DNA from: an uncultured Chloroflexia bacterium
GTDB lineage: Bacteria; Chloroflexota; Anaerolineae; JAAYZQ01
Assembly: GCA_963700285.1 (NCBI GenBank)
Contig: CAVOXA010000014.1
Span: forward strand, 128,001-192,000
DNA length: 64,000 nt
Reading direction: 5' to 3'
In this document: one piece after another, positions 3,000 to 31,744 of the stretch
How the letters are laid out: every line of letters starts with the position of its first letter
Position numbering within the stretch: position 1 is the first letter of the stretch
The notes under the pieces: model-generated
Databases searched by the model: none
Seen by the model: the letters and a program-made list of their open reading frames with translations, nothing else
Told to the model about the DNA's origin: nothing
Position numbers and translations under genes: made by a program

Positions 3000-4905
3000 A
3001 TGCCGAGTCGAAACAAAAAAGTGGGCGCCAGCCTGATCGCCCTACTGATCATCGCCACATTGATCCTTGCAGCCTGTGGCCCCGCGCCGGCGCCCGAGAC
3101 CGTGATCCAGACCGTGGTGGTGGAGAAAGAAGTCGAGAAAATCGTCACCCAGGAAGTCGAAAAGATCGTCGAGAAAGTCGTCACCGAGGTGATCGAGAAA
3201 GAGGTGACCATCGTCGAGACCGTCGAGGTCGAGGCTGAGGCCCCTGCGGGCGCGCGTGGCAGTTGCGGTACCGTCACGCTGCTTTACTGGCAGGCCGTCT
3301 CCATGGTCAACGCCTATCTCTCCGGCGGAACCAAGGACATCCACGCCGGTTCGGTCGTCCTGGAATCGCTGGCCCGCTACAACGAGTCCGGCCAATTGGT
3401 GCCCTGGCTGGCCGCAGAGATCCCCACCCTGGACAACGGCGGCGTCTCCGAAGACCTGATGAGCATCACCTGGAAGCTCAAGCCAGGTATCCTCTGGTCC
3501 GACGGCACGCCATTCACCGCGGCGGACGCTGTCTTCTCTGCCGAGTACTGCCTGGACCCGGAGATGGGCTGCAACGCGCTCTCCAACTTTGCCGACGTCG
3601 AGAAGCGTTGAGGCCATGACGATCTGACCTTCAAGATCAACTTCTCCGTGCCCAAGCCGTTCCCCTACGGCCCCTGGTCTCGAGCACGTCACCCATCATC
3701 CAGAAGGCCCAGTTCGAGGACTGCATGGGTGCCAAGGCCCAGGAGTGCACCGAGCAGAACTTTTACCCCATCGGCACCGGCCCCTTCAAGGTCAAAGACT
3801 TCCGGGCCAACGACGTCGTCGTCTACGAGGTCAACGAGAACTATCCGCGACCCCAACAAGCCCTGCTTCAGTGAAGTCGTGATCAAGGGTGGCGGCGATG
3901 CCCCCTCGGCCGCTCGCGCCGTGCTGGAGACCGGCGAAGCCGACTATGCCTGGAACCTGCAGGTCGAGCCGGAGATCCTGTCGGCCATGGAAGCCGCGGG
4001 CAAGGGCAAGGTCATCGCCTCGTACGGCACCGGCGTCGAGCGCATCATGGTCAACTTTACCAATCCCGACCCGCGACTTGGGCGACAAGCGCTCCAGGTG
4101 GACCGAGGACGACCAGTTCCCGCACCCCTTCCTGACCGACCCCGCCGTGCGCAAGGCGCTGTCGATGGCCATCGACCGCAACACGCATCGCCAGCCAGCT
4201 CTACGGCTTTGCCGGCAGAGCCGACCTGCAACGTGCTGTCTGGGCCGACCATCTATGCCTCCACGGCCAACGACGCCTGCCTGACCCAGGACATCGACGG
4301 GCGCCAACGCGCTGCTGGACGAGGCCGGCTGGGTGCCGTGGCGCCGACGGCATCCGCGAGAAGGATGGCGTCCGCCTGAGCATGCTGTACCAGACCTCCA
4401 CCAACTCGGTGCGCCAGAGCACCCAGGCCCTGGTCAAGCAGTGGTGGGAGCAGATCGGCGTGGAGACCGAGCTGCGCAACATCGACTCGGCCGTCTTCTT
4501 TGGCGGCGACCCGGCCAGCCCGGACACCTACGGCAAGTTCTACGCCGACGTCGAGATGTACACCAACTCCTTTGACGGCACCGACCCCGAGCGCTATATG
4601 GCCAACTGGCTGAAAGCAGAGATCTCGGACGAGTCCAACCAGTGGCTGGGCAACAACATCCCGCGCTGGTGCGAATCCGGACTACGAGGCGCTGGTGGCC
4701 GAGTTCGCCATGACGGCCGACTTTGACAAGCGCATCGAGATCGCCAAGGCCCAGAACGACCTGCTGATGCCAGAACTATGTCATGATCCCGCTGGTGCAC
4801 CGCGGCGACGTGTCGGCCCACGCCAACAGCCTGCTGGGCGTGCGCATGAACTCCTGGGATTCCGAGCTGTGGAACATCGCTGACTGGACGCGGGCGAGCC
4901 AGTAG
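3000..4905 (+). CDS. Peptide/nickel ABC transporter substrate-binding lipoprotein (family 5), split by several frameshifts
   Basis: AAGGAGG RBS; lipobox LAACG; Val/Glu-rich linker; ITWKLKPGILWSDGTPFTAADAVFS motif; continues through ORFs 3648-4379 and 4382-4726 to TAG at 4905. Confidence 0.85.
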
Positions 4906-10636: not shown

Positions 10637-11884
10637 TCAGTCGCCAGCTCCCGTCCTGATCACCAGCAGCGCCATGTCGTCAAACTGTGCTGCCCCTGCT
10701 TGGAACTGGCCGACGCGCTCAAAAACCAGGTCACACGCTCCTTGGGCATCCATTGCGCTGGCAGCAAGCATGGTATCCTGGAAACACTTCACCCCAAAGA
10801 ACTCACCAGAGGGCGAGATGGCATCCGTGATGCCGTCGGTGTAGAGGATGAGCAAGTCGCCAGAACCCAGACACACAGCGACTTCCTCAAGTACCACCTC
10901 TTCGACGACGCCCAACGCCATGCCCTCAGCATCCAGGACCTTGCACTCGCCCAGGTCAGCCTGCAAGAGCAGAGGACGATCGTGACCGGCCCTGACGTAT
11001 TGAAGGAGGCCCTGCCCCACATCGAGGACTCCGTAAAAGACGGTGACAAACATGCCAACCTGGCTCATCTCCAGCAGCAGGCAGTTGACATTGAGCAGCA
11101 CGGACCGGGGCGAGGGGTTGCGTTGGGCTTCGGCCCGGATCAAACTCCGGGTGAGGGCCATGAACAGCGCCGCGGCCATGCCCTTGTCCGACACGTCGGC
11201 CATCACCAGACCCACACGCTGGTCGCCCAGGGGGAAAACGTCATAAAAGTCACCGCCTACCTGCCTCGCGGGCCGGTAGCGGGCCGCACATTCCAAGCCC
11301 GGCAGGCGCGGGAATGCGCGGGGCAGGAAGCTGTGCTGGATGCCGCGGGCAAGCTCCAGCTCCCGCTCCAGGCGCTCCTTTTCCACCAGTTGGGCCTGAG
11401 CCTCCTCCAGTTCGCGAAAGGCCCGGGCCAGCTCCTCGTTCTTGCGCTGCAGATCGGCGATCATCTGCTGGTCTGACTCCCGCAGCCGGGCGCTGAGTAC
11501 CTGCATCGTACGGTACATCAACTGGGGCTGTTCCGACAGCAGGGAGTTCATGCCCGCTTCGGAAAGCTCCAGCAGCGTCGTGGGCTCCAGGGCGCGGATC
11601 GTGGCCGAGCGTGGCCGGCCGTCGACGAGGCCCATCTCGCCAAAGATCTGCCCTGGACCGCGTCTGCTCAGGACCATCTCTTCAGCGCCCTGCCCTTTGA
11701 CCACTTCGACCTGCCCTTCCACGATTATGTACACTTCACGTCCGGCGGTTCCCTCCCGCACGATCGTTTGCCCCGGCGCAAAGCTCCGCTCCTGCGCTGT
11801 CTCGGCCACCCATTCTAGCAGCTCCGGTCCAGCACCTTTCAGAAAGGGTACCTGGATCAAGACCTCCCTATCGAGCCTGGTCAT
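10637..11884 (-). CDS. cNMP-binding domain + coiled coil + PP2C/SpoIIE-type Ser/Thr phosphatase
   Basis: FGEMGLVDGRPRSAT cNMP cassette; VGGDFYD, ADVSDKG, YTDGITDA, DDMA PP2C motifs. Confidence 0.92.
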   Translation of the reverse strand: MTRLDREVLIQVPFLKGAGPELLEWVAETAQERSFAPGQTIVREGTAGREVYIIVEGQVEVVKGQGAEEMVLSRRGPGQIFGEMGLVDGRPRSATIRALEPTTLLELSEAGMNSLLSEQPQLMYRTMQVLSARLRESDQQMIADLQRKNEELARAFRELEEAQAQLVEKERLERELELARGIQHSFLPRAFPRLPGLECAARYRPARQVGGDFYDVFPLGDQRVGLVMADVSDKGMAAALFMALTRSLIRAEAQRNPSPRSVLLNVNCLLLEMSQVGMFVTVFYGVLDVGQGLLQYVRAGHDRPLLLQADLGECKVLDAEGMALGVVEEVVLEEVAVCLGSGDLLILYTDGITDAISPSGEFFGVKCFQDTMLAASAMDAQGACDLVFERVGQFQAGAAQFDDMALLVIRTGAGD

Positions 11885-12286: not shown

Positions 12287-15200
12287 TCAAGCCACGCGCT
12301 GCAGGTCCAGCAACCGCCTGCTTGTGTCGCGTTCAAGCTGCCGGCCCACGTACAGGTGCTCGCTGACCAGGCGGTCGAAATCATCTTTGGTTAAGGCCAA
12401 TACGCGTGTCGGCGCCAGGGCCGTGACGGTGGCCGTACGAGGAACTTGAAGCAAGAGCGCGATCTCGCCCACGTACTCGCCTGGCCCGCGCTCAGCAGCG
12501 ACGCGCAGCTCGCCATCCTGGCCCACGGATACCTGTACCCGCCCCGACTCGATGACATAGAAGGTCTCCCCCATCTCACCCTGGCGCATGAGGGCTGCGC
12601 CAGGCTCGTAGGTCTGGGCTTGCAGTTGGGCAGCGACGAGCCGGAGCTGTTGGGCGCCCATCTCGGCAAAGAGCGGTACGCGCCTCAGCAGTTCCACCTG
12701 GGTTATGGAGCGATCCACCTTGTCCCGCAGGGCAAAGCGAGCTTTGACCAACTGTTCAAAGTCGCGGCGGCTCAAGGACAGCAACTCTGTGGGTATTGTC
12801 GTCCGGCATGTGGCGTTGCGCGGGGCATCGTGCAGCAGCGCCAGCTCGCCAAAATAGCCCCCTCGGTCCAGTTGGTTCACCACCTCGGAGACTCCTCGTT
12901 CGTCGCGCTGTGTCACCTCGACGTGCCCGTGCCGGACGATGAAGAACCGGTCCCCGCGCTCACCCTGGCGGATGACGGCCCGGCCAGGCCCGTGGTGCTC
13001 TACCCGCAGGCGGGAGCAGACCAGGTCAACCTCGGCACCGTCCATGGTAGCGAAAAGGGGCATGCGCTGCAGCAGGCGCCTGTAATCCTGCTGTACAGTC
13101 TGAAAGTCAGCACTCAGGCTCTCGGCCCGCTTTACCTCGCGGAACAGGTATTGGACTCCGATCTCCCGCTCCTCCCAGGGCAACCCATCGTAGGCCCGCT
13201 GCAGAGACCGCACCGCCAGCTTTTCCCCTACCTCCTCGGCGGTCAGGTCCAGGAGCAGCCCCAGCACGGCAGCATAGATCTCGCCCTGCTCGATGAGGGG
13301 GCGCTCCGAGACTGTGGCCTCCTCGACCTGCCCTGCGACGATGCTCACCGCCCAGCCAGCGGCCAGGGCATAGTTGTTGAAACGCTCCACCAGGTTGCGG
13401 GCAGCCCGGTCGCCGGCAATCTGGCGGAACTGCTCCACGAGGTCGGACACAGTCCAGCCCAGGGCCCTTTGCAGACGGCGCCCGTCGCTCAGGTCAACCA
13501 CGGCCCTGGGTTGGTCGCTCAGGAGGGCGATGGACCTGAAGGCCAGGTGGTGGAGCAAAAGCCCTCCAGCCAGGAGCAGATAGGCAAGCAGCGGAACGCG
13601 GCCGGTGAGCGCCGAGACCGCCATTCCTCCCAGGCTGAAGATCAGCAGCGTCCAGGCCGGACCAAAACTCGTCCGCCAGAAAGAGACCAGGGTAGGCGCC
13701 ATCAGGGCCAGTGTCAGCAGCGGGAGCAGCCAGCCGCTGACGGTCAACAGCGCCCCGGCAACCGTAGGGCTGGCCTGCTGCTGTCGCGCGACCAGCCACA
13801 ACACCAAGCCGTAGCTTCCCGCCAGGCCAAGGACCAGCAGGGCCTTTCCCATCCGGCTCATCTCTTTGAGCTTCGCGCCGGAAAACAGGAGGAGGCCGGC
13901 CACGGCCAGAGCGCCATAGGCCAGGTAGGCCAGACCGATGGCGACAGGTGCGACGAGAATGGGCAGCACAGGCTGCCCTTCTTTCACCGCAATCGCCCCG
14001 GTTCCCACAAGTCCGATCAGCACAAGACTCGGCACAAGAGCCAGGGAAAAGAGCCCTATCAGCCAGAACACAGGCGACAGGCGGGATCCTGCATAGTCGG
14101 AAGCAATGCGCCAGGCGAGAAAGGCGGCAATGCTCAGAGCAGCCACGCCGATAACCGGGGTCAGCGCCCGGTAGGATAAGGCAGCAGGTACCAGGCTGAG
14201 CGCGACTGCGGCAGCCAGGAGCAAGGCAGCCACATTCCAGGGGTTGGCAAAGAGGCCCTTCCGGGCCGCCCAGAGCACAACCTTGCGGACCATGCTTAGC
14301 AGGGCCAGGCCGATGGATAGGACCAGGAGCAGGCTGAGGGCCGCCAACCCCAGGGCAAGCAAGATCCTGCCCACGCCGCCGCCCCGAGTCCACAGGTCGC
14401 GCAGCGCCCCAGCCAGCCGCCGCTGCCAAAAGTAGGCGCCCATCAAGATGGCGTAGGCGGTCCAGGCCGCCGACAACAGGCCAAAGACAGTAAAGATCTT
14501 TTCCTCGCGGGAGAAGGAGGGCAGGACGCCTTTAGGGCTGGCCGAGACTTCGGAAGTCTTGGAGACTTCCGAAGTCTGCTCTTGCCGGACAGCCTTGACC
14601 TTTTCCCACAAACCACCCCGGATAAAGGCCAGCGATTTGCGCCGCAGCATGGGGATGTCGAGCCAGTCCATGAGCAAGTAATAGCCATCCAACTCTAGCA
14701 GGGGATTGAGGTTGAAAAAGACCGTCAGGTAAGACAGAAAGGCGAACTGGAAGAGCAGGGGGTTCAGCGCGAAGGCAGGCCAGAGAAAGAGTACGATACT
14801 GGCCAGGCCTCCCAGGATCAGACCCGAGTAAGGGCCCGCCCAGGTGACGGCCAGGCGAGCCCGTTTGCCCTCCAGCCAGATGTCGGTGGTATCCACGAAA
14901 AAGGCGGGCATGCCAAAATAGATCATAAACCCGCCGCGCCGCACTTCGCGCCCATAGTGCTTGACCGTCAGGGCGTGGGCCATCTCGTGGATGAGGACGG
15001 CGAACAGGTTGGCCACGATCAGGCCCATCATGCCCAGCGCGATAGAACCGGCGATGGTCACCACGCCGTACTGTCCCCCGCGCAGGGCCTGGACAAAGGC
15101 ATAAAAGCCCAGTACCGTTACGAGCAGGTAGAGGATCAGCACCGGTCGGGCGAAGAGCAATCCACCGACCCGCCGATAGACACCACTCAACGCGCGATCC

Positions 15201-15682
15201 AGGCCACCGATGGTGAATTGCCTTTGCAGAAAAGACTGCCAGACCCGGGCCAGACGGTATTGGGGACGGCGTCTCAGCAGGCGGCCCCGCACCCGCTGGT
15301 AGACGTTGACCGGCCGCTCGCTGAGCAGCAGGCCAGCTTTGAGCCCCTCTACCAGGGCGGCCACACGAGCAAAGGCAAAGGAACCATATTCAAGAAAGTA
15401 GGCAACGACCAGGTCCTTGACCGTGCGGCGGCCATCCATCCGCTCCCACAAGAAGTGGTCCCGGTCGCTCAGGCGGTAGTAGGTCTTGGTGGCTGGATTC
15501 TTCAAGACATAGTACACGCCATCGCGCCCTGTCAGGCGGCTGGCTATCACGCCCGGCGCCGCCTGGGGTCGGTATTGGGCCATCTCCAGCTTTTCGTACA
15601 GCCAGGCCTTCAGGCCCAGCCAGCCCTGATCGGGCTGGCTGGTCTCTTGCCGCAGCGTGTCCCAGAGGGAGGTTGCTTCCAT
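12287..15682 (-). CDS. Fusion: PqqD/RRE-like domain + M50 zinc metallopeptidase + multi-TM block + two cNMP-binding domains
   Basis: N-terminal YYVLKNP..YYRLS..FLWERMDGRRTV (PqqD-like pattern); HEMAH, AGP, NLNPLLELDGYY (M50); FGELALLHDAPRNAT and VGEIALLLQVPRTAT (cNMP). Confidence 0.85.
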   Translation of the reverse strand: MEATSLWDTLRQETSQPDQGWLGLKAWLYEKLEMAQYRPQAAPGVIASRLTGRDGVYYVLKNPATKTYYRLSDRDHFLWERMDGRRTVKDLVVAYFLEYGSFAFARVAALVEGLKAGLLLSERPVNVYQRVRGRLLRRRPQYRLARVWQSFLQRQFTIGGLDRALSGVYRRVGGLLFARPVLILYLLVTVLGFYAFVQALRGGQYGVVTIAGSIALGMMGLIVANLFAVLIHEMAHALTVKHYGREVRRGGFMIYFGMPAFFVDTTDIWLEGKRARLAVTWAGPYSGLILGGLASIVLFLWPAFALNPLLFQFAFLSYLTVFFNLNPLLELDGYYLLMDWLDIPMLRRKSLAFIRGGLWEKVKAVRQEQTSEVSKTSEVSASPKGVLPSFSREEKIFTVFGLLSAAWTAYAILMGAYFWQRRLAGALRDLWTRGGGVGRILLALGLAALSLLLVLSIGLALLSMVRKVVLWAARKGLFANPWNVAALLLAAAVALSLVPAALSYRALTPVIGVAALSIAAFLAWRIASDYAGSRLSPVFWLIGLFSLALVPSLVLIGLVGTGAIAVKEGQPVLPILVAPVAIGLAYLAYGALAVAGLLLFSGAKLKEMSRMGKALLVLGLAGSYGLVLWLVARQQQASPTVAGALLTVSGWLLPLLTLALMAPTLVSFWRTSFGPAWTLLIFSLGGMAVSALTGRVPLLAYLLLAGGLLLHHLAFRSIALLSDQPRAVVDLSDGRRLQRALGWTVSDLVEQFRQIAGDRAARNLVERFNNYALAAGWAVSIVAGQVEEATVSERPLIEQGEIYAAVLGLLLDLTAEEVGEKLAVRSLQRAYDGLPWEEREIGVQYLFREVKRAESLSADFQTVQQDYRRLLQRMPLFATMDGAEVDLVCSRLRVEHHGPGRAVIRQGERGDRFFIVRHGHVEVTQRDERGVSEVVNQLDRGGYFGELALLHDAPRNATCRTTIPTELLSLSRRDFEQLVKARFALRDKVDRSITQVELLRRVPLFAEMGAQQLRLVAAQLQAQTYEPGAALMRQGEMGETFYVIESGRVQVSVGQDGELRVAAERGPGEYVGEIALLLQVPRTATVTALAPTRVLALTKDDFDRLVSEHLYVGRQLERDTSRRLLDLQRVA
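14545..14577. repeat. REP-like palindrome doublet lying in frame inside the M50 fusion gene
   Basis: AGACTTCGGAAGTCT-TGG-AGACTTCCGAAGTCT, read as QTSEVSKTSEVS. Confidence 0.8.
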
Positions 15683-15698
15683 AAGATGTCCAAGACAT

Positions 15699-15727
15699 CG
15701 AGCCGTCCGCACAGTGCGGACGGCTCG
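15699..15727 (-). terminator. 13-bp GC-rich hairpin between precursor gene and peptidase gene
   Basis: CGAGCCGTCCGCA-CAG-TGCGGACGGCTCG; no clear U-tract. Confidence 0.6.
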
Positions 15728-15794: not shown

Positions 15795-16067
15795 CTAGAC
15801 GATCTTGAACTCCGGTCCCACCATAGGACCGGCGTCGACGCTGCCAAAGGCCACCATTCCGGCAAAGTCCATTTTGGAGATGCGCTCGTCCAGAGTACCG
15901 GCCAGCGTCTCCATGGTCTCTGCGTCAAGACTCTTCAGTGCGGCCACCTCCTCGTCCGTCAGCTCAAAGCCCGCCAGCGCCTCCTCGGGGCTGGCAAACA
16001 GAGCCTCGCGAAAGTCTTTCTCCAGTACTGCCTTGCCGATGACAGTTTCCACAGCTTCCTTGGACAT
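15795..16067 (-). CDS. NHLP-clan (Os1348/Franean1_4349-like) RiPP-type precursor peptide B, 90 aa
   Basis: AAAGGAG RBS; MSKEAVETVIGKAVLEKDFREALFASPEEALAGFELTDEE leader; leader ends LDERISK; 25-aa tail. Confidence 0.8.
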   Translation of the reverse strand: MSKEAVETVIGKAVLEKDFREALFASPEEALAGFELTDEEVAALKSLDAETMETLAGTLDERISKMDFAGMVAFGSVDAGPMVGPEFKIV

Positions 16068-16128
16068 GGTACACGCTCTCCTTTTCTTGAGTTTGGTCTC
16101 TCGGCCTGATGGGCTCAAATCTGACCTC

Positions 16129-16194
16129 ATTCTACAGCACAACCGGGCTCCTGTCTATGACCGCCTTCACAGGCTGACTGTGACCTGCGTCACA
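16129..16194 (-). promoter_or_regulatory. CRP-dependent promoter of precursor B: -10 plus two CRP boxes
   Basis: -10 TAGAAT (16134-16129); TATGA-N6-TCACA 16156-16171; perfect TGTGA-N6-TCACA 16179-16194. Confidence 0.85.
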
Positions 16195-16201
16195 GTATCG
16201 C

Positions 16202-16822
16202 TCAGCGGCGACAACCAATGTCCGCCAGCAGAACTTCTAGGGCCGCGATGTTCCGCTGCTTTCCCGTCCCGCGAAGGGCCCGCGCTGCCCCGGTAAAGTA
16301 GGTGTGTTCTCGAAGGAACTGGAGTTGGCGGCGATACCAGGCTTCCTTACCCAGCCGCACACCGTGCGCCGCCCACTCGGCACGCAGCGCCTCACTCTGA
16401 ACCAGGCCATCCTCCCGCCCCAGGCTATCGAGGTCAGCATCGGCCAGGATCTCTTCTAGGGACGTAAGGGGTCGCTGCGGCAGCCTGGTGGCCAGGATCA
16501 GCCCCTGGACCACGGACACCTGTTTTGGCGTGAAACCAAAGCAGGGCAGGACCAGGACCACGATCTCGGCGCCGGCCCGTTCGTGGTCGTGGTACTGGAA
16601 CAAGAATCCAATGTCATGATAGGCCGCGGCGATTTCGATGAGCCGGGTCTCATCCTCATCCATGCTGCTGGCCGCCGCCAATCGCAGGGCTGCGGGCAGC
16701 ACGTCATCGTTTGTATGGGAAAAGTTGTGGTAGGTCAGTTCCGGAGCCAGTTCGCTTTGCAGGCGGTCCAGCGCATAGCGCTTGGCAGCCTCAAAATCGG
16801 ACTGGCGGTGAGGGTAGCGCAT
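16202..16822 (-). CDS. HD-domain metal-dependent phosphohydrolase
   Basis: YHNFSHT, AAAYHDIG, ADADL motifs; start could be further upstream (ORF to 16909). Confidence 0.88.
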   Translation of the reverse strand: MRYPHRQSDFEAAKRYALDRLQSELAPELTYHNFSHTNDDVLPAALRLAAASSMDEDETRLIEIAAAYHDIGFLFQYHDHERAGAEIVVLVLPCFGFTPKQVSVVQGLILATRLPQRPLTSLEEILADADLDSLGREDGLVQSEALRAEWAAHGVRLGKEAWYRRQLQFLREHTYFTGAARALRGTGKQRNIAALEVLLADIGCRR

Positions 16823-17157
16823 GGCTTCCCGGCCAGCTCCTGCCCACGGCTCTCCGCTCAGAATCTGCCAGCCGGTCACGGCCTCCGGATCCGTTCCCTG
16901 GATAGCCATTGCGCAGGAATGCAGATCATTGGACGCTCACGCGGCAGCCCTCGCCCTTCGCTGCGCATCGACCGCAGTCCACGCATGGGATCCATGTGCG
17001 CTGGAGGGCGCACTTGGAGGCCCGCCCGAGCTTGGCGCAGGAAAGGCACGGGTCTGTGACCCGGCCTGAGGGAATTCGGACGGGCGAGCCGGTGTCATTA
17101 GCCGGCACAGGTGCCGGGGGAGGGAATGCGGCAGCACATGAGTCCGATGCAGGTCTT

Positions 17158-17448
17158 CTATGTGACCTCAATCAGGGACGCCCTGCCCATGTCACCCGAC
17201 TCGCCGGCCCACAGCCCGTTCCAGCCGTAGCTGAGCACGCCCTGGTAGTCACTCTTGGAAATGCGCTCGTCCAGGATGCCGGCAAACGACGCAATGGCCT
17301 CGGCATCGATGGTCTTCAGAGCGGCTGCTTCCGCCTCGGCCAGGTCGTAGCCGGCCAGTGCCCGGTCGGGATCTATGAAGAGGAGGTCGCGGAACTCGCG
17401 GTCCAGCACTGCCCTGCCGATAACGGCCTCTACGGCTTGCTTTGACAT
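17158..17448 (-). CDS. NHLP-clan (Os1348/Franean1_4349-like) RiPP-type precursor peptide A, 96 aa
   Basis: AAAGGGG RBS; MSKQAVEAVIGRAVLDREFRDLLFIDPDRALAGYDL leader; LDERISK; 31-aa tail; collinear with precursor B. Confidence 0.8.
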   Translation of the reverse strand: MSKQAVEAVIGRAVLDREFRDLLFIDPDRALAGYDLAEAEAAALKTIDAEAIASFAGILDERISKSDYQGVLSYGWNGLWAGESGDMGRASLIEVT

Positions 17449-17532: not shown

Positions 17533-17598
17533 AGTATAACGCACTGCCGGACTGTGGGCCATGAACTGCGTCACATCGTTGCTGTTAACTGGGTCACA
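17533..17598 (-). promoter_or_regulatory. CRP-dependent promoter of precursor A: -10 plus two CRP boxes
   Basis: -10 TATACT (17538-17533); CATGA-N6-TCACA 17560-17575; TGTTA-N6-TCACA 17583-17598. Confidence 0.8.
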
Positions 17599-17776: not shown

Positions 17777-18478
17777 TCAATACAGGATCCTTCTCTCCAA
17801 TCCCTGCCGGTCCAGAATCGTGACCCGATGCCCCTCGATCTCGATCAGCCCCTGGTCCCGGAAGGCGCCCAGTACCTTGTTCACCCTCTCCCGGCTGGCT
17901 GCTACCCAGGTGGCCAGCTCGGTCTGGGTCAGGCGGAGATCGATGGCGACAGTCTCATTGCCTTGCTCCCCTTCCTGTCCCTCCCGCCCGTAGCGCTCGG
18001 CCAGCTCCAGGAGCTTGGCCGCTACCCTGCCATAGACGTCGAGAAAGGACAGGCTCTCAACATAGGCAGTGGTATAGCGGACTCGGGCGCTCAGAACCTC
18101 CAGGATGCTTCTGGCCATACCGGGGCAGGATTCCAGGTGCCGCAAAAAGTCGTCTCGGCTCAGGGTCAGCGTCACCGTCTTTTCCATGGCCACCGCCCCG
18201 GCCGAACGCGGCAGGCCGTCGAGCAGTGCCAGCTCACCAAATACCTCACCGGGGCCGTAAACGTTGACCGAAATCTCCTGACCAGACTCGCTGATGATAA
18301 AGATGCGGACCTTGCCCGATTCGATGACGTACAGACTGTGGCCCCGGCCGCCCTTGTGAAAGATGATCATCCCCTTGCCAAAGGTGCGTTTCCCCAGGCT
18401 GCCGGCCAGGGTCTCCAGATTTTGGTCAGAGACTCTGGCAAAGAACGAAACGTTCCGAAGCTGATCCACCTGGGACAT
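17777..18478 (-). CDS. Crp/Fnr-family cNMP-binding transcriptional regulator
   Basis: FGELALLDGLPRSA cNMP cassette; LTQTELATWVAASRERVNKVL HTH with CRP-type R-E recognition residues. Confidence 0.95.
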   Translation of the reverse strand: MSQVDQLRNVSFFARVSDQNLETLAGSLGKRTFGKGMIIFHKGGRGHSLYVIESGKVRIFIISESGQEISVNVYGPGEVFGELALLDGLPRSAGAVAMEKTVTLTLSRDDFLRHLESCPGMARSILEVLSARVRYTTAYVESLSFLDVYGRVAAKLLELAERYGREGQEGEQGNETVAIDLRLTQTELATWVAASRERVNKVLGAFRDQGLIEIEGHRVTILDRQGLERRILY

Positions 18479-18879
18479 TCACACCTCCCGCGCGCGCTGC
18501 AAGCGATTGGAATGCTCCTATTCTAACACACAACAGCAGAAAACAAAACCACTACTCTCATTTCCCGTGTCGCCGTGGGTCGAAGGCATCCCGCGGTCAA
18601 TCGCCCACAAAGTCTAGGGACGTCGTCAACAGCGCACAGTGGTCGCACTCAAGCTCCCGGCCTAGGGCCCAGGTCAAGAACACGACAAGCCCTGCCCGAT
18701 ACCCCACTGAATGTTTTCGAGCAGCGTCGCGCTTGAGAGAAGGCGCAGGATCGCCCCGGCGATGGCGACCACCAGGTCCAGGGCTGTGATGGCCTGATTG
18801 GTCGGATAGATGGGGTCGATAGGGGTGCGTCCCGGGGCGTTACGTCACTCGGCTTCGTCGTGTCGCACCTCTTCGATTG

Positions 18880-19481
18880 AGATTCACCTGCTGGTGTATC
18901 CACTCCGGCACCGGATAGCGGTTGAGGTGATGCTTGAGCAGGGTTAAGGGCACGATCAGTGGCACCAGCCCCTGCCGGTAGTCCTCGATGAGGCCCAGGA
19001 GTTCCTGCTTATCTTCGCTGGAGAGGTCATTCTTGAGGTAACCCATCAGGTGCTGGAGCACGTTCACATGCTTGCCCCGCGTGCCCAACACGGCGAGGCC
19101 CTCCATCAATTGAGCGCCGTACTCTGCGGTCAATTCGTCCCAGTCCCGCTTGCCCGCATCGGCGACCAGGCGGCCCATCTCAGTGTAGTGTTTGGGACTA
19201 TGGGCCATCAGCGTCATCTTGTGCGCCGTATGGAACTTGACCAGGCCACCTGGCGTCGGCTCCTCGTCTAGCATTCGAGTCCAGCGATAGTAGGCGAACA
19301 CCCGCTCGACAAAGTTCTCGCGCAGCGGCAGGTCGTTGAGCCGTCCCTCCTCCTCCAATGGCAGCAAGGGGAACCGGTTCATCACCTCTCGGGGGAACAT
19401 GCCCGTGCCGTTGCGCTCGGCCATGCCATGTGGATTGTACACTTTCACGCGAAATAAGCCTGAACTTGGCGAATCCTTCTT
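18880..19481 (-). pseudogene. DUF1722/YbgA-like gene fragment, copy A (truncated at both ends)
   Basis: KKDSPSSGLFRVKVY...LKHHLNRYPVPEWIHQQV; near-identical to 22738-23424 but lacks start and final residues. Confidence 0.85.
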
Positions 19482-19602
19482 ATAAGACTGGACACAAACG
19501 ACAAATCCAGCTGGCCAATGAACTGACTCTGACAACTAGAATCAAGCTCCGGAGGCTCTGCGACTGAGACCTGTTACTACGCGTGGTCGGCTCCAGAGAT
19601 AG

Positions 19603-20676
19603 CTATGCCCCAGACTCAAAAACCTCTGCCGCGCGGCGCATCTTGGCGATGATATCAACATCAAATGGGCAACGCTCGAGGCACACCTCGCATTCGATGC
19701 AGTCCGATCCCGTAGCCGGGAGCGACGCATACCACTCCCGATTCGCCTGCTGGTGAAGCGGCGTAAGTCCGTAGTACTCGACGTAGTTCAGATAGTAGAT
19801 GACGCTAGGAATGGGGATGTCCTGTGGGCAGGGGAGGCAATGTTTGCAGCGCACGCACTGCCCGCGGAGCCAGTACTTGAGATCGTCGTGCAAAGGGGTG
19901 GCCCGTTTCTCCTCCGCGGATGCCGTCAGATAGCTGAGGGCCTGCCGCGTCTGATCGGCATTCCGGGGGCCGGGCACGGCAGCGGCGACTCCCTGTGACA
20001 GGACATAGTGCAAGCACTGGGCCGGCGTGATGCCGGTCGGGGTGCCATCTCTCTGCAACAGCACGCCACCGTAGTAGGGCTTCATGGCGACGACGCCAAC
20101 CCCGTACTCTGCGCAGGTCTCCAGAAGTGCGGCTCGCTCCGGGTCCCCGTGGTGTTGATACAGATTGACCGGGAACATGAGGACATCGATGAGGCCCGAT
20201 TCGATGGCCATGCGGGCCACAGCCGGATTGTGGTTGCTGAGACCGATAAAACCGATCCGCCCGTCGCGTCGGAAGCGATCCAGTCGTTCGATTCCCTGCG
20301 CCGCCCAGTTCTGCCACAACGATTCGGTATCGACCATGGTGAGCATTGCGATCTCAGCGTAGCCGTTTCCCAGGAGGCTGAGTGCCTGATCGAAGCAGCG
20401 CTGGCAGCGGTCAACCGGTTCGTGGTAGATGAACCCCCAGTGTAGGCAGAGCACCAGACTCTCGCGAAATCGGCGAATGGCTGGGCCGATAGCCTCCCAA
20501 TAACCGGCATGGCTTTCCAAGGGGTCGTTGTAGACCAGATCGATGTAGTTCACGCCCGCTGACAGGGCTAGGCCGAGCACTGCATCCATGTTCTCAGAGC
20601 TCTCGATCAGGTGCTCAGTGCCTAGCCCGATCACACCGACCTCGAGTCCTGTCCTACCCAGAGTTCTGGTTTCCAT
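19603..20676 (-). CDS. Aldo/keto reductase with C-terminal 4Fe-4S dicluster
   Basis: RTLGRTGLEVGVIGLG, GVVAMKP; CVRCKHCLPCP and CIECEVCLERCP. Confidence 0.9.
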   Translation of the reverse strand: METRTLGRTGLEVGVIGLGTEHLIESSENMDAVLGLALSAGVNYIDLVYNDPLESHAGYWEAIGPAIRRFRESLVLCLHWGFIYHEPVDRCQRCFDQALSLLGNGYAEIAMLTMVDTESLWQNWAAQGIERLDRFRRDGRIGFIGLSNHNPAVARMAIESGLIDVLMFPVNLYQHHGDPERAALLETCAEYGVGVVAMKPYYGGVLLQRDGTPTGITPAQCLHYVLSQGVAAAVPGPRNADQTRQALSYLTASAEEKRATPLHDDLKYWLRGQCVRCKHCLPCPQDIPIPSVIYYLNYVEYYGLTPLHQQANREWYASLPATGSDCIECEVCLERCPFDVDIIAKMRRAAEVFESGA

Positions 20677-20878
20677 TCTTATCGCAGATTGCCCCCTATT
20701 CTGCTCGTCCAGCTTTCCTGTCCAATGGTAGACCGTCTAGCAAGTACCGAACAGAACACCTCTGCACAAGCAAACTGACCAGATGACCATGAAGAATCTG
20801 CTTGTAGAAGCACCCGTAGCTGGAAAATTCCAGAGATCCTTCAATGCGTCTCCTGGTGGGACTCTATGACCAATTGAC

Positions 20879-20907
20879 ATTGTATCATAGTCTCGCCCCT
20901 TGAGCAA
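20879..20907 (-). promoter_or_regulatory. Putative promoter of the aldo/keto reductase cassette
   Basis: TTGCTC-17-TACAAT with extended TG. Confidence 0.55.
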
Positions 20908-20939
20908 AACCACGTGTGCGGGGACTGGAATGCCACAAC

Positions 20940-21512
20940 TCAGGTGATGCTTCAGCAGCGTCAACGGCACGATCAGCGGCCCAGCCCCTGACGGTAGTCC
21001 TTGATGAGACCCAGGAGCTCCAGCCTACCTTCGGTAGGCCTTGTCATCACTGGAGAGATGGTTCTTTAGTAACCCATCAGGTGCTGGAGCACGTTCACAT
21101 GCTTTCCTCGCGTGCCCAGTACAGCCAGGCCCTCCATCAGCATAGCCCCATACTCGGCTGTCAGTTCGTCCGAGTCCCGCTTGCCCGCGTCAGCGACGAG
21201 GCGGCCCATCTCGGTGTAATGCTTGGGACTATGGGCCATGAGCGTGAGCTTGTGGGCGGTGTGGAACTTGACCAAGCCGCCTGGGGTAGGTTCCTCGTCT
21301 AGCATTCGGGTCCACCGATAGTAGGCAAAGATCCGCTCGATAAAGTTCTCACGCAGGGGCATATCGTTGAGCCGGCCTTCCTCCTCCAAGGGCAGCAGCG
21401 GGAAACGGTTCATGAGCTCGCGGGGGAATATGCCTGTCCCATTTCTCTGCGCCATTCCGTGCTCATTATACACTTTCACACGGAATAAGCCCGAACTTGG
21501 CGAATCCTTCTT
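20940..21512 (-). pseudogene. DUF1722/YbgA-like gene fragment, copy B (degenerate)
   Basis: ORF 21066-21479 matches full copy; frameshifted tail to PLTLLKHHL. Confidence 0.85.
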
Positions 21513-21627
21513 ATAAGACTGGACACAAACGACAAAAAGTCTTCATGCTAACGACCTGCATCCAAGTAATGGGAGAGGCCGAAATAGACTGAACACGTCT
21601 TATAGGTTGAGCAAAACGCAGATGAAA

Positions 21628-21972
21628 CTACATCTGTAGCCCAGATCGCAACAGGTCGATGATTGCCTGGACGATGCTCTGGAGGGTCGCTTGCGAGAGG
21701 TTACCGGCTTCGGATACCATGAGGCTGCTGCTGGCCGTGAACAGCTTGCCAGGACGTGCATAGCTTGTCACCCGAAGGGAGCCTGTATCGAAATCTGCGT
21801 CCGTAAGCTCAACGGCACGCGGGTCTGCGTACGGATTGCTGGTGATCTGGCACAGTATCCAGTCATCCCTGCCAGAGTCAGCCAACACAAGCGCAGGTCG
21901 CAGCTTGGCCTCCGACAGATCCGAGAACGGAAATGGTACAAGCACTATCGAGCCGACTGCAGGTGTGACCAT
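21628..21972 (-). CDS. PemK/MazF-family toxin
   Basis: GSIVLVPFPFSDLSEAKLRPALVL...ILCQITS signature. Confidence 0.88.
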   Translation of the reverse strand: MVTPAVGSIVLVPFPFSDLSEAKLRPALVLADSGRDDWILCQITSNPYADPRAVELTDADFDTGSLRVTSYARPGKLFTASSSLMVSEAGNLSQATLQSIVQAIIDLLRSGLQM

Positions 21973-22166
21973 GCGGCATCTTCCTCTGACCTGTTCCAGT
22001 CCTTGGCCAGTGCTGCCTCGCTGAGCAAGGCCGTTTCAGACACGCCGCTTAGAGGCGCCTCCTCCAAGATTGTCACAAGTGCACGCCGCACAGCCGGCAA
22101 TCGGACTGATTCAAGCAAGCTCACTTTGCCTTGCTCGTCAATCACAGCTTCGATTGTTTTGACCAT
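21945..22166 (-). CDS. Putative cognate antitoxin
   Basis: 73 aa upstream of and overlapping the toxin; acidic C-terminus LSEAALAKDWNRSEEDAAW; own promoter. Confidence 0.75.
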   Translation of the reverse strand: MVKTIEAVIDEQGKVSLLESVRLPAVRRALVTILEEAPLSGVSETALLSEAALAKDWNRSEEDAAWSHLQSAR

Positions 22167-22201
22167 GCCTACCCCTTTCATCGACACTGAACCCTAACCT
22201 G

Positions 22202-22230
22202 ATTATACAACGAATGGCATGGCCGGTCAA
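22202..22230 (-). promoter_or_regulatory. Promoter of the toxin-antitoxin operon
   Basis: TTGACC-17-TATAAT. Confidence 0.7.
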
Positions 22231-22295
22231 CCAACCGAAACAACTTCGCACGCAGGTCAAGGCTCATGTAGACAGTGATGGGTTGATCCATTGGT

Positions 22296-22430
22296 CTACA
22301 CGTGATTGCGCAGCATGAGCTCCTTGGGGTACGGATGCAAGTACGCCTGCTGGTGTACCCAATCGGGAACCTGATAGCGGTCTAGATGATGCTTGAGCAG
22401 CGTCAGCGGCACGATCAGCGGCAGGAGGTC
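22296..22430 (-). pseudogene. DUF1722/YbgA-like 3'-terminal remnant, copy C
   Basis: Encodes PLIVPLTLLKHHLDRYQVPDWVHQQAYLHPYPKELMLRNHV-stop. Confidence 0.85.
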
Positions 22431-22443
22431 CCGCTGACAAGCC

Positions 22444-22725
22444 TCACCCATCTGGGCTCGGAACTCCAGGATACACAGATTGTGGAAGGCTTCTAGCTTC
22501 TGCTGCTGCCTTCTGCAACGCAGCGGCTAGTTGCTCTGCCTGTTCGATGGTCAGCAGGAAGCTCGTCTCATCCGCCTCAAAGAGCCGCATATCCCTCGGC
22601 CCTGACTCATGGATGCGAAACCGGATTTCATCATCCCAACCTTGCTCCCGGTCCGCAGGGTCAAAGTACACTTCGACAGAAATGTTCTCGCCTGCTTGAA
22701 CGATCATGTAGACATCTCGAAACAC
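22444..22725 (-). CDS. Hypothetical protein, 93 aa
   Basis: Clean acidic ORF between full ybgA-like gene and copy C; no motif recognised. Confidence 0.55.
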   Translation of the reverse strand: MFRDVYMIVQAGENISVEVYFDPADREQGWDDEIRFRIHESGPRDMRLFEADETSFLLTIEQAEQLAAALQKAAAEARSLPQSVYPGVPSPDG

Positions 22726-22737
22726 CGCACTACCAGT

Positions 22738-23719
22738 TTAAACATGATTCCTAAGCATCAGCTCCTTTGGGTACGGATGGAGGTAGACCTGCTGGTGCAC
22801 CCAGTCAGGCACCGGATGCCGGTTCAGATGATGCTTGAGCAGCGTCAGCGGCACTATCAGTGGCACCATCCCCTGCCGGTAGTCCTCGATGAGGCCCAGG
22901 AGCTCCTTCTTGTCTTCACTCGAGAGGTCCTTCTTGAGATAGCCCATCAGGTGCTGGAGCACGTTGACGTGCTTGCCCCGGGTGCCCATCACACCGAGGC
23001 CCTCCATGAGCATGGCCCCATACTCGGCTGTCAATTCGTCCCAGTTCCGCTTGCCCGCGTCGGCGACGAGGCGGCCCATCTCGGTGTAATGCTTCGGACT
23101 GTGGGCCATCAGCGTCAGCTTGTGCGCGGTGTGGAATTTGACCAGACCACCGGGCGTTGGCTCCTCGTCTAGCATTCGCGTCCAGCGATAGTAGGCAAAG
23201 ACTCGCTCGATAAAGTTCTCGCGCAGCGGCATGTCGTTGAGGCGGCCCTCCTCCTCCAGCGGCAAGAGCGGGAAGCGGTTCATGACCTCGCGGGGAAACA
23301 TGCCCGTGCCATTGTGCTGGGCCATGCCGTGTTCATTATACACTTTTACACGGAACAGACCCGACGAAGGAGAATCCTTTTTGAACACAAAGCCGTGAAG
23401 CTCGGCGGCAGCCAGCTCTTCCACACGATTCTCGTGCCCAGGCGATCATGGCTTCCGTATGGTCAGTGCCGGACTTGGGCGCTATCAGCCGCGGATGCTC
23501 GCTGTCACCCACCAAGCGCAGGCTCTCCCGTGGGATGGGCAGCCCCATCTCTACCTCCGGGCAGACAGGCACCCACTCAACGAATAAGCCCAGCGTGCCG
23601 GTCAGATACCGGTCCAGTTTGTGCCCGCCGTCAAAGCGTACCTTTTCTCCGAGCAGGCAGGTGCTGATTCCAAGACGAATCGTCGGTCCCTCGATGGGCT
23701 TCTGCTCGACGTTTGCCAT
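22738..23719 (-). CDS. DUF523 + DUF1722 protein (YbbK/YbgA-like), one frameshift near 23425
   Basis: AAGGAGG RBS; GISTCLLGEKVRFDGGH, VCPEVEMGLPIPRE, KKDSPSSG, EEEGRL, YPKEL motifs. Confidence 0.88.
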
Positions 23720-27722: not shown

Positions 27723-29147
27723 TCATATTCCAGTCTCTCTAGCCAAGCGATAAGCGCTTAGCGTCCGCTGCCGCGCCCAGGCATGGTCGATGATCGGCGC
27801 CGGGTAGCCCTGGCCCAGGACGAACCCGGCCTCACGCTGTACATCACCGGGCATCTCCCACGGCGCGTGGAGGTATCTGTCCGGCACGCGGGCCAGCTCA
27901 GGCAGCCAGCGCCGCACAAAGACACCGTCCGGATCGTGTTTTCTGCCCTGAAGTATTGGGTTAAAGATGCGAAAGTAAGGCGCAGCGTCAGTGCCGGTGC
28001 CGGCCGTCCACTGCCAGCCGCCGTTGTTGGCCGCCGGATCGCCATCTACCAGGTGCTGCATGAAGAACCGCTCACCCCACCGCCAGTCGATGAGCAGGTC
28101 TTTGACCAGGAACGATGCGACGATCATCCGTGCCCGGTTGTGCATCCAGCCGGTCTCGACCAGTTGGCGCATGGCCGCGTCGACCACGGGATAGCCGGTC
28201 CGGCCCTCGCACCAGGCGGCGAAAGCACCCGCATCGTTCTCCCAGGCGATCTGGTCGTATACAGGGCGAAAGCTCGATCCGGATACATGGGGAAAGTGGT
28301 GGACGATGTTGATGTAGAACTCGCGCCAGACCAACTCGTTGAGCCAAACCTCGACGCCTTTGCGCTCCTCAGCGCTGGACGCCGCGCCGGCAGCAGCCAG
28401 GGCGCGGGTCACCGCCTGCCGCGCTGAAACCATACCAAATCGCAGGTAGGGCGAAAGTTTTGACGTGCCGTCCTGATCCAATCGATCGCGGCCCTCTGAA
28501 TAGCAGTAGATAGGCGCGGCGTCGAGATCGACAAACGAGTCTAGGCGGCGCCGGGCCTCGGCCTCCCCGGGTGGGAAGGGTACCTTGGAGGGCAGAGTCG
28601 GGGAATCGGGAATCGGCAAGGCCGGCACATCCGGCACTGCAGGCAGCGACGCCGGGGCAGCCAGCAAGAGTCGCTCGTACGGCGGGGCTAGGGCCTTCCA
28701 GGCACGGCCAAAGGGCGTAAAGACGGTATAGGGCGCACCGGCGGCGTTGAGAACCACTCCGGGCGGGTGCACAGTCACGCCCGCGGTCAGGTGGAGCGGA
28801 AGCACCTCGGCGACGCGGGCATCACGCCCTCGGGCGTACGGCGTATGGTCCTCTTCGGCAAAGATGCCGGCCGCACCGGTCTCACCCACCAGTGTCCTCA
28901 GTTCGGCCAGCGGCTCGCCGCGCCGGACCACCAGGCGGCTGCCCCGCGCACGCAGGTCTGAGTCGAGTTGGCGCAGCCCGCCAAGCAGGAACGCCACCCG
29001 CTTCTCGCCGGCGCACGGCGAATTGAGTAGCGCCGGGTCGAGTACAAAGACCGGGATGACCTTTTCGGCGAGGGCCAAGGAGGCGGCAAGAGCTTGGTTG
29101 TCTGCCAGGCGGAGATCGCGGCGGGTCCACCAGATGGCTGTGGTCAT
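27723..29147 (-). CDS. phrB: Deoxyribodipyrimidine photolyase (class I CPD)
   Basis: [48 protein letters not shown]. Confidence 0.95.
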
Positions 29148-30135
29148 GATTGGTTTTGGTCCGCCTCGATCAATTGCTCTCGACGGCGCCGATGTTCGAT
29201 GATGGGCCGGTCACCCTGGATCATCTTTTCGCCGATGCGCAGCCCTGAGGGCCGCGGCTGCTGGGTCTCTACCACACGGCGATCCTGGTGCAGCACAAGA
29301 CGGTTGTAAGGCATCGCCGCCCAAGCTACCAGTTCCTTCAGCCCCGGTACCGGCAGGAACTTCTGATAGAAGCGCAGGTAGAATAGTGTGTGCTCCTCAT
29401 CCACGGGCGCAAAGGCAACGATGATCCGCACGTCCTGGCTGATATAGTTCTGCCACAGGTTGGGAAAGAGAAACTCCAGTTTGAATTCCCGATCCGTGGG
29501 CGGCACCGGCACTTCAGCTTGGTCGTCGAGGTGGCGTCCCGTCGTCCTCCCGGTTGAACGTATAGACGTAGAACATGTCCTCGTCAATCCAGTCCATACC
29601 AGGGCCATCCACCAACTTGCCTATGCCGCGCCCAATGGTGTTGTAATGCACGAAAGGCACGTGCACTACGTCGAGCTGGTTTTCAATGGCGCGGGAATAG
29701 TGCGCATTCCACAGGTCATGGATCGTAGCGTAGGTAAAGCCATCGTCCATGTCGTCAAAGAAGCGCGGTGGCGGCAGGTCCTCCGGTGGGTTATCACCCC
29801 ACCACACCCAGACAAAGCCGTGGCCCTCGTAGGTCGGGTAGCTATGTGCCTTGAGAGCTTGGGGCACCGGAGCATTGCGACCATTTGCCGGGATGAGCAC
29901 CGCTCTATCAGAGCTGTCGTACTCAAAACCGTGGAAAGGGCAATGGATGTGGCCATCGACCACCTTGCCTTTGCTGAGCTCGACGCCCCGGTGAGGGCAC
30001 TTGTCGCGCAGACAGACTCACGCTGCCCGTGCCGTCACGCCAGAAGACCAATTTCTCGCCCATGCGGGTGACGCCGACAGGTTTGTCCTTGACCTGTTTG
30101 GATTCGACCAAAACGTACCACTGGTTAGGAATCAC
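29144..30135 (-). CDS. Rieske non-heme iron oxygenase alpha subunit (frameshifted)
   Basis: NQWY start, [23 protein letters not shown] iron motif, QD near C-terminus; three ORF pieces. Confidence 0.85.
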
Positions 30136-30182
30136 GTCCCATCATCCTCCATCGTTGCTTTTTGAATCCTTGCCATTCTCTC

Positions 30183-31744
30183 TTACCTCCAGGTTGATGA
30201 GTACGAGGATTGTGGCTCGCCAGGAGCTTTGAGAGGTACTTCCCGCAGACCCAGCTCGGCCAGTAGCGACCGCGCCACGCGCAAGCCACCCAGGGCCACG
30301 GCCGGCACCGACTGCCCGGGAAAGACGCTGTCGCCCACCAGCCACAGGCCAGGTGCCAGCCGCGGCCCCCAGGCTCGGAAGAGGCTGGTCTGCGGGAAAC
30401 CACCCACCCAGCCCCAGTCCCGGCGGGTGAAGCGCTGAAACGTAACCGGCGTGCCGGGCAGAATCAGGTTGGCGGCGTCCCGCAAGAGGGGCACCGCAAC
30501 CTCGGCCAGCGGCCAGTACTCGTTCCGCATACGATTGCTTGCGGGCCTTGTAGGCCTCGCGATCATGCTCGTACAGATCCCACCACGGATCTAGCTCGGT
30601 ATGGGTGCTGAGGGTGAGCGTGCGCTGTCCCTTCGGCGCGCGATCCTCATCCCACGCTGGGCTGAGCGACAGAAAAACGGTATTGCCGTTGCCCATCGGC
30701 TCGCGCACCACGACCTGGTGGTGCAGCGGAAAACCGGCGGGCACGGCGGCACCATCCAGGCCGACGTAGACCATGAAGGCGCCCCACACCTCCTGCGGGC
30801 GGGGCGGAAGCGTGCGCAGTCTGTGAACGCGCAGGCCGCGCGCCTCGTGCTCACCCAGCAGCCGGGCAACGTTCCACGGCGGCAGATTGGCGATCACGAC
30901 GTCGGCGGGGAAGGACTGCTCCCTTTTTCGTCTCCACGGCCACCGGTCGCCCGCGCTCGACGGCGATGCGCGTGGCCTCCTGGCGAAAGTGCACCTGCCC
31001 GCCGTTGCGCCGCACAGCTTCGACCAGCGTCCCGGCGATGGCTCCCATGCCGCCCTCTGCGTGGGCCACGCCGCGACGGGGTAGGTCCAGCGCCGATGCG
31101 CCGTAGAGGGCGTTGGCGTAGCGGCTCGTCGTCTGGGCGGCGATGAGCAGTTGGGCATCCACGAACAGCCGCAGCCGCTCAGACGCGCCGCGCAGGTGGG
31201 TACTGACTGGGCGGAACGCATCGAGCATCAGCGACGGCCTGAGCCGATTCCGCAGATCGTTGCCCAGCCAGGCGAGACCATCGCCCACCAGGTGGGCAGC
31301 CTCGCCGGGAGTCTGAGGCGGCCAGGCCGGCAGCCGCAGCGCCAGGTCCCACAGGGCGTCAGAGGTGGCTTCCTGCCAGCGCCAGAAGGGCTCGGCCTCG
31401 GGGCCAAAGGCGCGGCGGCGTTCGTTCCAGCGCTCTTCGCCACAGTAACGGGTGACGCTCGCACCATCGGGCAGGTGGACGACCATGGCCGGGTCGTCGG
31501 GCTGGACCGGCCAGCGGTTTATGCCCACAGCTTGGGCCACAAGGTCCATCGGCCCGCCGGGGTAAAAGCCAGCGGGCAGGGTCGCCCCGACGTCGAAGCG
31601 GTAGCCCTGGTGATAAAAGGTCCCGGCGCAGCCCCCGGCGTAGACGTGGGCCTCCAGCACGGTGACGTCCAGGCCGGCGCGGGCCAGCAGCGCCGCCGTC
31701 GTCAGTCCGCCGATTCCTGCACCGATGACGACAACGCGACTCAC
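30183..31744 (-). CDS. FAD-dependent carotenoid desaturase, CrtD/CrtI family (frameshifted)
   Basis: [52 protein letters not shown]. Confidence 0.82.

Follow-up and report, generated by a model that had tools for sequence, protein, structure and literature searches.

An RRE-fused site-2 protease with tandem cyclic-nucleotide-binding domains, linked to Os1348-type leader peptides in Chloroflexota

The closest described systems each share some parts with the protein studied here; what is said of them follows the portions of the cited papers available to us. The daptide peptidase MpaP/DapP (NF041824) likewise has an N-terminal RiPP recognition element (RRE; RiPP, a peptide made by the ribosome and modified after translation) and an intramembrane site-2 protease (S2P) core, and is encoded beside multiple short precursors (10.1101/2023.03.08.531785). 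SpoIVFB and other CBS-domain S2Ps have a C-terminal cytoplasmic nucleotide-binding module, for which substrate gating was proposed (PMC6242693). HetC of Nostoc, an ABC transporter with a peptidase, is a peptide maturase whose cyclic nucleoside monophosphate (cNMP)-type domain is required for function (PMC10986499). Known peptides of the Os1348/Frankia_peptide families (PF14407, NF038399) are encoded together with tailoring enzymes and efflux genes (PMC7726476, PMC12353581). Here we describe a gene from an uncultured Chloroflexia bacterium, located at positions 12287..15682 (minus strand) of a 64,000-nucleotide stretch of contig CAVOXA010000014.1 (positions 128,001 to 192,000), which as a whole is termed the window. 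The gene encodes a putative S2P with an RRE, an extra membrane block and two cNMP domains.

Compared to MpaP/DapP, the window protein has an additional seven-transmembrane (7TM) block, a helical domain and two cNMP domains, and the leaders are of the Os1348 type and not ELExMEAP. The invariant C-terminal Thr of daptides was not found in the precursor family, although precursor A of the window ends in Thr, and neither tailoring enzymes (MpaB/C/D/M) nor an ABC exporter were found alongside the window protease. The best NCBIfam match was NF041824 (daptide intramembrane metalloprotease; E 1.4e-42, residues 63-454), but it reached 146 bits against a cut-off of 300; given this score, the leader, the missing Thr and the neighbours, daptide membership was rejected. 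Whereas the CBS domain of SpoIVFB binds ATP, the window protein has a PKA-R-like cNMP pair located far from the core, beyond nine helices and the helical domain, and its proposed substrate is a leader peptide captured by the RRE. HetC combines a C39 cysteine peptidase with an ABC exporter, whereas the window protein is of the M50 type, has no ATPase and carries canonical cassettes. Both window precursors pass the cut-offs of both Os1348/Frankia_peptide families. Unlike the known members they stand downstream of CRP boxes and in the company of signalling genes; tail length in the clade is 23-323 amino acids (aa). In the open-access literature, as far as available to us, no description of an RRE-S2P-7TM-cNMP architecture was found, a search that covered no supplementary tables (RRE-Finder, daptide), which may list such proteins; nor was an S2P with cNMP domains found there, ATP-binding CBS versions being known. 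The protein is, in our judgement, an undescribed variant of RRE-fused site-2 leader peptidases.

The open reading frame (ORF) extends on the minus strand from an ATG at 15682 to a stop at 12287 and encodes 1131 aa (P0001), while plus-strand reading of the same interval is interrupted by stops. A homolog search returned 457 proteins out of 7993 candidates scored, the named ones being from Anaerolineae or Chloroflexi; one family member is assigned by its source database to a cultured species, Oscillochloris trichoides DG-6. The number of homologs rules out an artefact or a chance ORF, and the gene is real and conserved across Chloroflexota. The protein has the following parts:

12287..15682, minus strand: RRE / M50 protease / 7TM / helical domain / two cNMP domains, 1131 aa
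15335..15547, minus strand: RRE (PqqD-like) domain, residues 46-116, in which three strands precede three helices (AlphaFold model and PqqD profile)
14648..15148, minus strand: site-2 (M50) protease core, residues 179-345 (model, motif and profile to a solved S2P)
14975-14989, minus strand: HEMAH motif, residues 232-236
14684-14713, minus strand: NLNPLLELDG motif, residues 324-333
14261..14509, minus strand: membrane helix pair, residues 392-474, present also in short forms of the family; the NF041824 match reaches residue 454
13532..14242, minus strand: linker helix and seven-helix membrane bundle, residues 481-717, with G protein-coupled receptor (GPCR)-type 7TM folds as best structural matches
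13067..13486, minus strand: cytoplasmic helical domain, residues 733-872 (about), conserved, without Pfam family
12728..13060, minus strand: cNMP-binding domain A, G945-E946..R955
12308..12700, minus strand: cNMP-binding domain B, G1072-E1073..R1082

A sequence-only reading of the gene had proposed a PqqD-like N-terminus, and this was borne out. In the AlphaFold model strands 46-72 and helices 73-116 have the winged-helix RRE order with pLDDT >90, and the excised segment scored 25.3 bits against Pfam PqqD, compared to 22.5 bits within the whole protein and a cut-off of 23.4. PqqD was the sole family matched in 27 of 40 homologous N-terminal segments; the solved PqqD 3g2b matched the domain at E 0.45 only. 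The M50 core also stood, with both motifs intact and a profile match to the solved site-2 protease MJ0392 (3b4r) at E 1.2e-7, and the membrane beta-loop after HExxH was modelled as strands 249-263. The Pfam M50 match was weak (16.2 bits, below the cut-off of 27.2). Among full-length homologs, a partly redundant set, HExxH was conserved in 187/188 and Asp332 in 188/188. The protein is predicted to be an intramembrane-cutting S2P with intact HExxH/Asp. The helix pair 392-474 may represent S2P helices 5-6, which have been proposed as a substrate gate (PMC13712780, in the part available).

The two cNMP domains were found as the earlier reading had described them, with intact phosphate-binding cassettes (GE..R) and a Pfam match at E 1e-45. 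The top Foldseek matches of the tandem were the PKA/PKG regulatory tandems. These domains appear to be canonical cNMP-binding domains, and nucleotide binding is predicted. The residues following the cassette Arg are N and T and do not settle the base (cyclic AMP (cAMP) versus cyclic GMP (cGMP)).

The model contains 14 membrane helices in total, and the alternation of Lys/Arg across the family follows the positive-inside pattern. The RRE, the helical domain and both cNMP domains are all predicted to be cytoplasmic, which fits this pattern. Ten of the helices follow the protease core (residues 392-717), in agreement with the roughly ten additional segments first counted. A separate model of residues 476-868, covering the 7TM block and the helical domain, formed one confident unit (pTM 0.86). 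Structure searches with the whole model returned rows filled by the cNMP domains and did not cover the RRE and the protease. For residues 476-868 Foldseek gave no match at E 0.001. In a wide structural search, seven-helix bundles of the GPCR type made up nearly all of the top 50 rows; they aligned to residues 500-718 (best Z 11.3, with an rmsd of 5.4 across 183 residues), and the helical domain was barely covered. Because a Z of up to 11.3 is within reach of helical bundles by their common arrangement, this is receptor-like packing and not homology. The 7TM block had no Pfam family, and its atlas leads were all <0.9, the nearest named cluster being HisKA_7TM at 0.79, a lead only. Comparison by hhalign with a neighbouring MASE3-like protein and with the membrane region at the N-terminus of a neighbouring kinase gave no homology, each with a single-sequence template and hence low power. 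The conserved polar residues of the block are located at helix ends, mostly cytoplasmic, and none are mid-membrane; no feature indicates a route for transport. The block is likely a relay or sensor arm and not an exporter.

The cytoplasmic helical domain was absent from the domain order first proposed. It had no Pfam family and no usable atlas match. Its profile gave 203 hits in the full library; among the 150 listed the domain was placed in 149, nearly all from the same family or fragments of it. Weak relatives (library-wide E from 4e-9 to 3e-6) were the C-termini of DUF4388 and Cache-HAMP-GAF-HD-GYP proteins, and this suggests a module for interactions in signalling. The domain was also found in 23/25 genomes of one family in another class.

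The genes around the protease are all located on the minus strand, in the order CRP, precursor A, HD hydrolase, precursor B, protease and cNMP-PP2C phosphatase:

17777..18478, minus strand: CRP-family transcription factor, a cNMP domain with GE..RS followed by HTH_Crp_2
17533..17598, minus strand: precursor A promoter, boxes 17583-17598 (1 mismatch) and 17560-17575 (2 mismatches), -10 TATACT 17533-17538
17158..17448, minus strand: precursor A, 96 aa, Os1348/Frankia_peptide leader and 31-aa tail
16202..16909, minus strand: HD-domain hydrolase (Pfam), start uncertain, candidate cyclic-nucleotide phosphodiesterase
16129..16194, minus strand: precursor B promoter, boxes 16179-16194 (perfect) and 16156-16171 (1 mismatch), -10 TAGAAT 16129-16134
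15795..16067, minus strand: precursor B, 90 aa, Os1348/Frankia_peptide leader ending LDERISK and 25-aa tail
15700..15726, minus strand: hairpin of 12 bp, perfect and lacking a U-tract, in the spacer from precursor B to the protease gene (112-nt spacer z -5.05, 0/200 shuffles)
10637..11884, minus strand: cNMP-domain / SpoIIE (PP2C) phosphatase

The protease gene was placed directly downstream of precursor B from the start, and 112 bp separate the two. The window precursors scored 84.4 and 74.6 bits against NF038399 (cut-off 40) and 66.2 and 56.9 bits against PF14407 (cut-off 48); the best solved match of the leader-family profile was 6lk7. No informative solved relative was found for the HD hydrolase. 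In a class sample of 401 genomes, 37 had a homolog at E 1e-60, short forms included. PF14407 (E 1e-6) was present in 34/37 genomes with and 68/364 genomes without a protease homolog, and this co-occurrence supports a link between the protease and Os1348-type leader peptides.

To describe the context in the clade we used genes within 8 kb, called with our own gene caller, in 20 stretches from 17 genomes that we assigned to the clade of the window; several stretches stop at contig edges, and L042 and L066 are marginal members. A precursor was found in 16 of these stretches, CRP in 13, a zinc finger in 11, a cyclase in 9, PP2C in 8, an M16 peptidase in 6 and HD in 3. A 70-aa Cys-rich zinc-finger ORF (weakly DUF2180/B-box-like) adjoins the protease in 22 loci; two copies are present in the genome of the window (L001:16360-16569 and L002:5017-5226), none of them at the window locus. 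Precursor tails in the CRP clade are 23-323 aa long, several with low-complexity repeats, and start mostly hydrophobic; the mean hydropathy of the first seven tail residues was >1 in 14/18 precursors. Long Gly/Ala/Ser/Thr low-complexity repeat tails of 106-323 aa, with the same leader and CRP promoter, were observed at L049:5791-6912, L052:6908-8071, L037:5253-5765 and L040:7417-8100. Elsewhere in the window, 18840-23424 holds a DUF1722 gene in three copies, partial or whole, and several neighbouring genes are fragmented there; genes at 3725-4883 and 29144-31816 likewise appear to be frameshifted, possibly through an error of assembly.

A perfect TGTGA-N6-TCACA box is located 127 bp upstream of precursor B and a one-mismatch box 150 bp upstream of precursor A. 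The number of boxes in the window was not beyond chance (3 found; at least 3 in 15/100 shuffles), so that the case for CRP boxes rests on their position and their conservation across loci. In CRP-linked loci a box with at most one mismatch was found within 250 bp of 14/18 precursors compared to 8/749 other genes, and upstream of 0/11 cyclase-only precursors and 0/10 others. Spacing was analyzed in 16 promoters that were chosen for having a box, so the result bears on spacing: a -10 element (TAnnnT) followed exactly 44 nt after a box in 16/16, and 14/16 had a second box 23 bp downstream with the TAnnnT 21 nt after it. We take this geometry to be that of a class II CRP site at -41.5 with an upstream site near -64.5. 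CRP-type control of precursor transcription is strongly supported by the conserved tandem boxes at both window precursors, which upholds the transcriptional half of the dual control of peptide output proposed earlier. In 4/4 runs, drawn from 4 studies, precursor B is covered by RNA-library contigs whose ends lie at 16106-16111, 11-16 nt inside the predicted start near 16122. Such contigs reveal neither transcript starts nor levels, and their ends are a weak hint of that start.

Based on these observations we favour, with a probability of roughly 0.55, a reading in which the cNMP-domain S2P docks Os1348-type leaders and cuts off unmodified tails under the same nucleotide that induces the precursors via CRP. 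A STAND-type class III cyclase, of the kind encoded nearby, would make cAMP or, less likely, cGMP; the position that we take to hold the usual base-selecting Lys is an Arg in the nearest cyclases, and base specificity could not be read from it. CRP would then bind the tandem boxes at about -64.5 and -41.5 and activate precursor transcription. In line with the fold, the motif and the hydrophobicity observed, the cytoplasmic RRE would capture the leader in its folded form, and the hydrophobic stretch that follows LDERISK would enter the membrane active site, where the tail would be cut at or just past this motif. Nucleotide on the PKA-R-like tandem may act through the helical domain and the 7TM bundle on the helix pair by the active site, most likely by relief of inhibition. 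Such cNMP gating of cleavage is plausible, judged from the predicted architecture. The overall design would be a feed-forward one, with a single cyclic nucleotide inducing the substrate and regulating its cleavage.

The distribution of cassettes and catalytic residues bears on this coupling. Among close homologs (at least 50% core identity) both cassettes were intact in 111/119, while both cassette Arg were lost in 64/69 distant homologs. The Arg-less proteins grouped in a core tree (FastTree, subsample) with moderate support (0.86). Of 74 diverse full-length members, those catalytically active comprised 39 with both cassettes (the largest class), 10 with one and 14 with none; the catalytically inactive members comprised 9 with both, 2 with one and 0 with none. 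Since lineages lost either cassettes or catalytic residues, the protease and cNMP modules are separable, and most likely the ancestral protein had both functions, either of which can be lost. The inactive members, which have lost zinc ligands and kept their cNMP cassette(s), are candidate pseudo-protease receptors (P0255, P0273, P0277, P0299, P0308, P0312, P0319, P0335, P0280, P0293 and P0313). At loci of Arg-less proteases CRP was absent in 23/23 and a precursor was present in 1; the 106 neighbour proteins of this cassette-decayed clade were scanned with our own profiles only.

Several points weigh against the favoured reading. Coupling is not obligatory, since 14/74 members are catalytic without cassette Arg and 9/74 have both cassettes without catalysis. 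The tallies are not independent events, because the compared genomes are kin. The full AlphaFold model (129 sequences) had a mean pLDDT of 86.9 but a pTM of only 0.68, so domain packing is uncertain. The first seven tail residues of precursor A are not hydrophobic (-0.21), and the tails differ widely in length and have no sequence in common. The cNMP domain of HetC, another peptide maturase, binds ppGpp and not cAMP (PMC10986499, in the part available).

The main alternative, possible if doubtful, is a membrane hub with two functions whose cNMP arm has an output other than the gating of cleavage. Handling or sensing of the precursor would fall to the RRE and the protease, and the 7TM, helical and cNMP parts would form a receptor with protein contact as output, candidate partners being for example the cyclase, the phosphatase or the zinc finger protein. 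This would agree with the representatives that lack catalytic residues and keep both cassettes, with the weak relationship of the helical domain to DUF4388 and HD-GYP signalling proteins, and with L066, where a protease has two cNMP domains without the 7TM block. However, catalysis and both cassettes were retained jointly in the clade of the window (111/119), and the helical domain is, among the 150 matches listed, nearly confined to the protease family or its fragments.

It is also conceivable, and in our view unlikely, that the locus is a peptide autoinduction circuit in which the released peptide or leader is the ligand of neighbouring STAND cyclases, the sensor ends of which are oligopeptide-binding SBP_bac_5 or TPR domains. 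The cyclic nucleotide would then induce more precursor through CRP and open the protease, and if this is true Chloroflexota would have a quorum-type system centred on a cNMP-gated intramembrane protease. Eep / RRNPP pheromone circuits are analogous, in that an S2P releases a short peptide which feeds back on a TPR-type sensor; they have no RRE, folded leader or cyclic nucleotide step, and the sensor is a transcription factor or phosphatase and not a STAND cyclase. A cyclase-AAA-SBP_bac_5 fusion is encoded upstream of CRP in L006 and 25 kb away in the window. It is unusual in itself for a STAND cyclase to carry a cytoplasmic domain that binds peptides. Of the genomes examined from the Arg-less sister clade, 10/11 had a leader whose tail measures 5-9 residues beside a cyclase-AAA-TPR gene, and in the other class that has the helical domain a 72-74 aa leader directly follows the end of a homologous gene in 5/5 genomes tested.

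The window has two copies of the cyclase-AAA-SBP_bac_5 fusion (class III cyclase), one intact at 43462-47169 (minus strand, 1235 aa) and a second in three ORFs at 34817-38761 (minus strand); both flank oligopeptide permease genes. Short-tail leaders, often ending in GxG and hydrophobic residues, show tight linkage to cyclase-AAA-TPR genes, with tandem or convergent orientation, at L075-L079, L082, L084-L086, L089, L043 and L105-L109.

The protein could instead be a RiPP leader peptidase of the ordinary kind, with modifying enzymes for its substrates encoded at other loci and the cNMP domains merely tuning antibiotic or metabolite output; we consider this quite improbable. Os1348 itself is tied to antibiotic activity (PMC7726476, in the part available). 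In the same genome a different contig carries L002 (G000:C1:1157000-1168000), where a short RRE-M50 gene is located in a B12 radical S-adenosylmethionine (SAM) cluster with four called precursors and four B12 radical SAM genes; radical SAM genes were found near 5/9 short-form loci, and one ATP-grasp ligase was found beside the cNMP-bearing variant in L066. However, that radical SAM cluster has its own protease, and its leaders are only 34-45% identical. Radical SAM genes were present in 0/20 clade loci, and no tailoring enzyme was found in the window locus. Among 91 neighbour proteins scanned (out of 132 unlabelled ones in a first batch; five of the 91 are protease homologs) no YcaO, LanM/lanthipeptide enzyme, C39 or HlyD was found at E 1e-11. 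Precursor tails had no common modifiable motif and no Cys in 18/18.

The four called leader peptides of L002 have tails of 11-13 aa, and this RiPP-like cluster also contains a 349-aa protein lacking a Pfam family. The paralogous locus L001 of the same genome consists of HD, a major facilitator superfamily (MFS)-cNMP fusion, CRP, precursor, M16 peptidase, a long protease and the 70-aa zinc finger. MFS transporter-cNMP fusions are located beside HD genes at L001:6748-8396 and L003:5677-7476, the latter also beside a receiver-domain protein with a cyclase motif. At L065:10486-11529 and L069:7977-9020 an extracytoplasmic function (ECF) sigma factor is followed by an anti-sigma-like protein with a Frankia_peptide leader in its C-terminal half, directly before a short RRE-M50 gene, an arrangement which suggests that leader domains may serve as cleavage tags on regulators. 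A regulator-like protein with a C-terminal Frankia_peptide leader was observed at L063:5747-6346.

Export of the released peptide through the extra membrane block, which would make the protein maturase and exporter in one as first suggested, is very improbable. The earlier observation that HlyD/ABC exporters are absent was upheld (no HlyD, C39 or ABC exporter gene adjoins the protease; C39 gave no match in the genome, which is 89% complete, and the 5 HlyD_3 matches in the genome include 0 in the window), and a separate ABC exporter is required for other peptides matured by an S2P (TMcin; PMC13712780, in the part available), but the block resembles 7TM receptor bundles in nearly every one of the top 50 structural rows, none of them a named peptide transporter, is without a Foldseek match and without conserved mid-membrane polar residues, the protein has no ATPase, ABC or C39 Pfam domain, short forms lack the block, and the MFS-cNMP gene at the paralogous locus could export instead.

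If the favoured reading is confirmed, the protein would represent a site-2 protease under direct cyclic-nucleotide regulation, and RiPP parts, the leader and the RRE, would serve signalling and not a modified natural product. One second messenger would likely control both the making and the cutting of peptides, a wiring which was not found in the open-access literature available to us. The module is widespread in Chloroflexota and forms a compact system with a single protease, a substrate of 90 aa, a single ligand and a CRP promoter that is defined.

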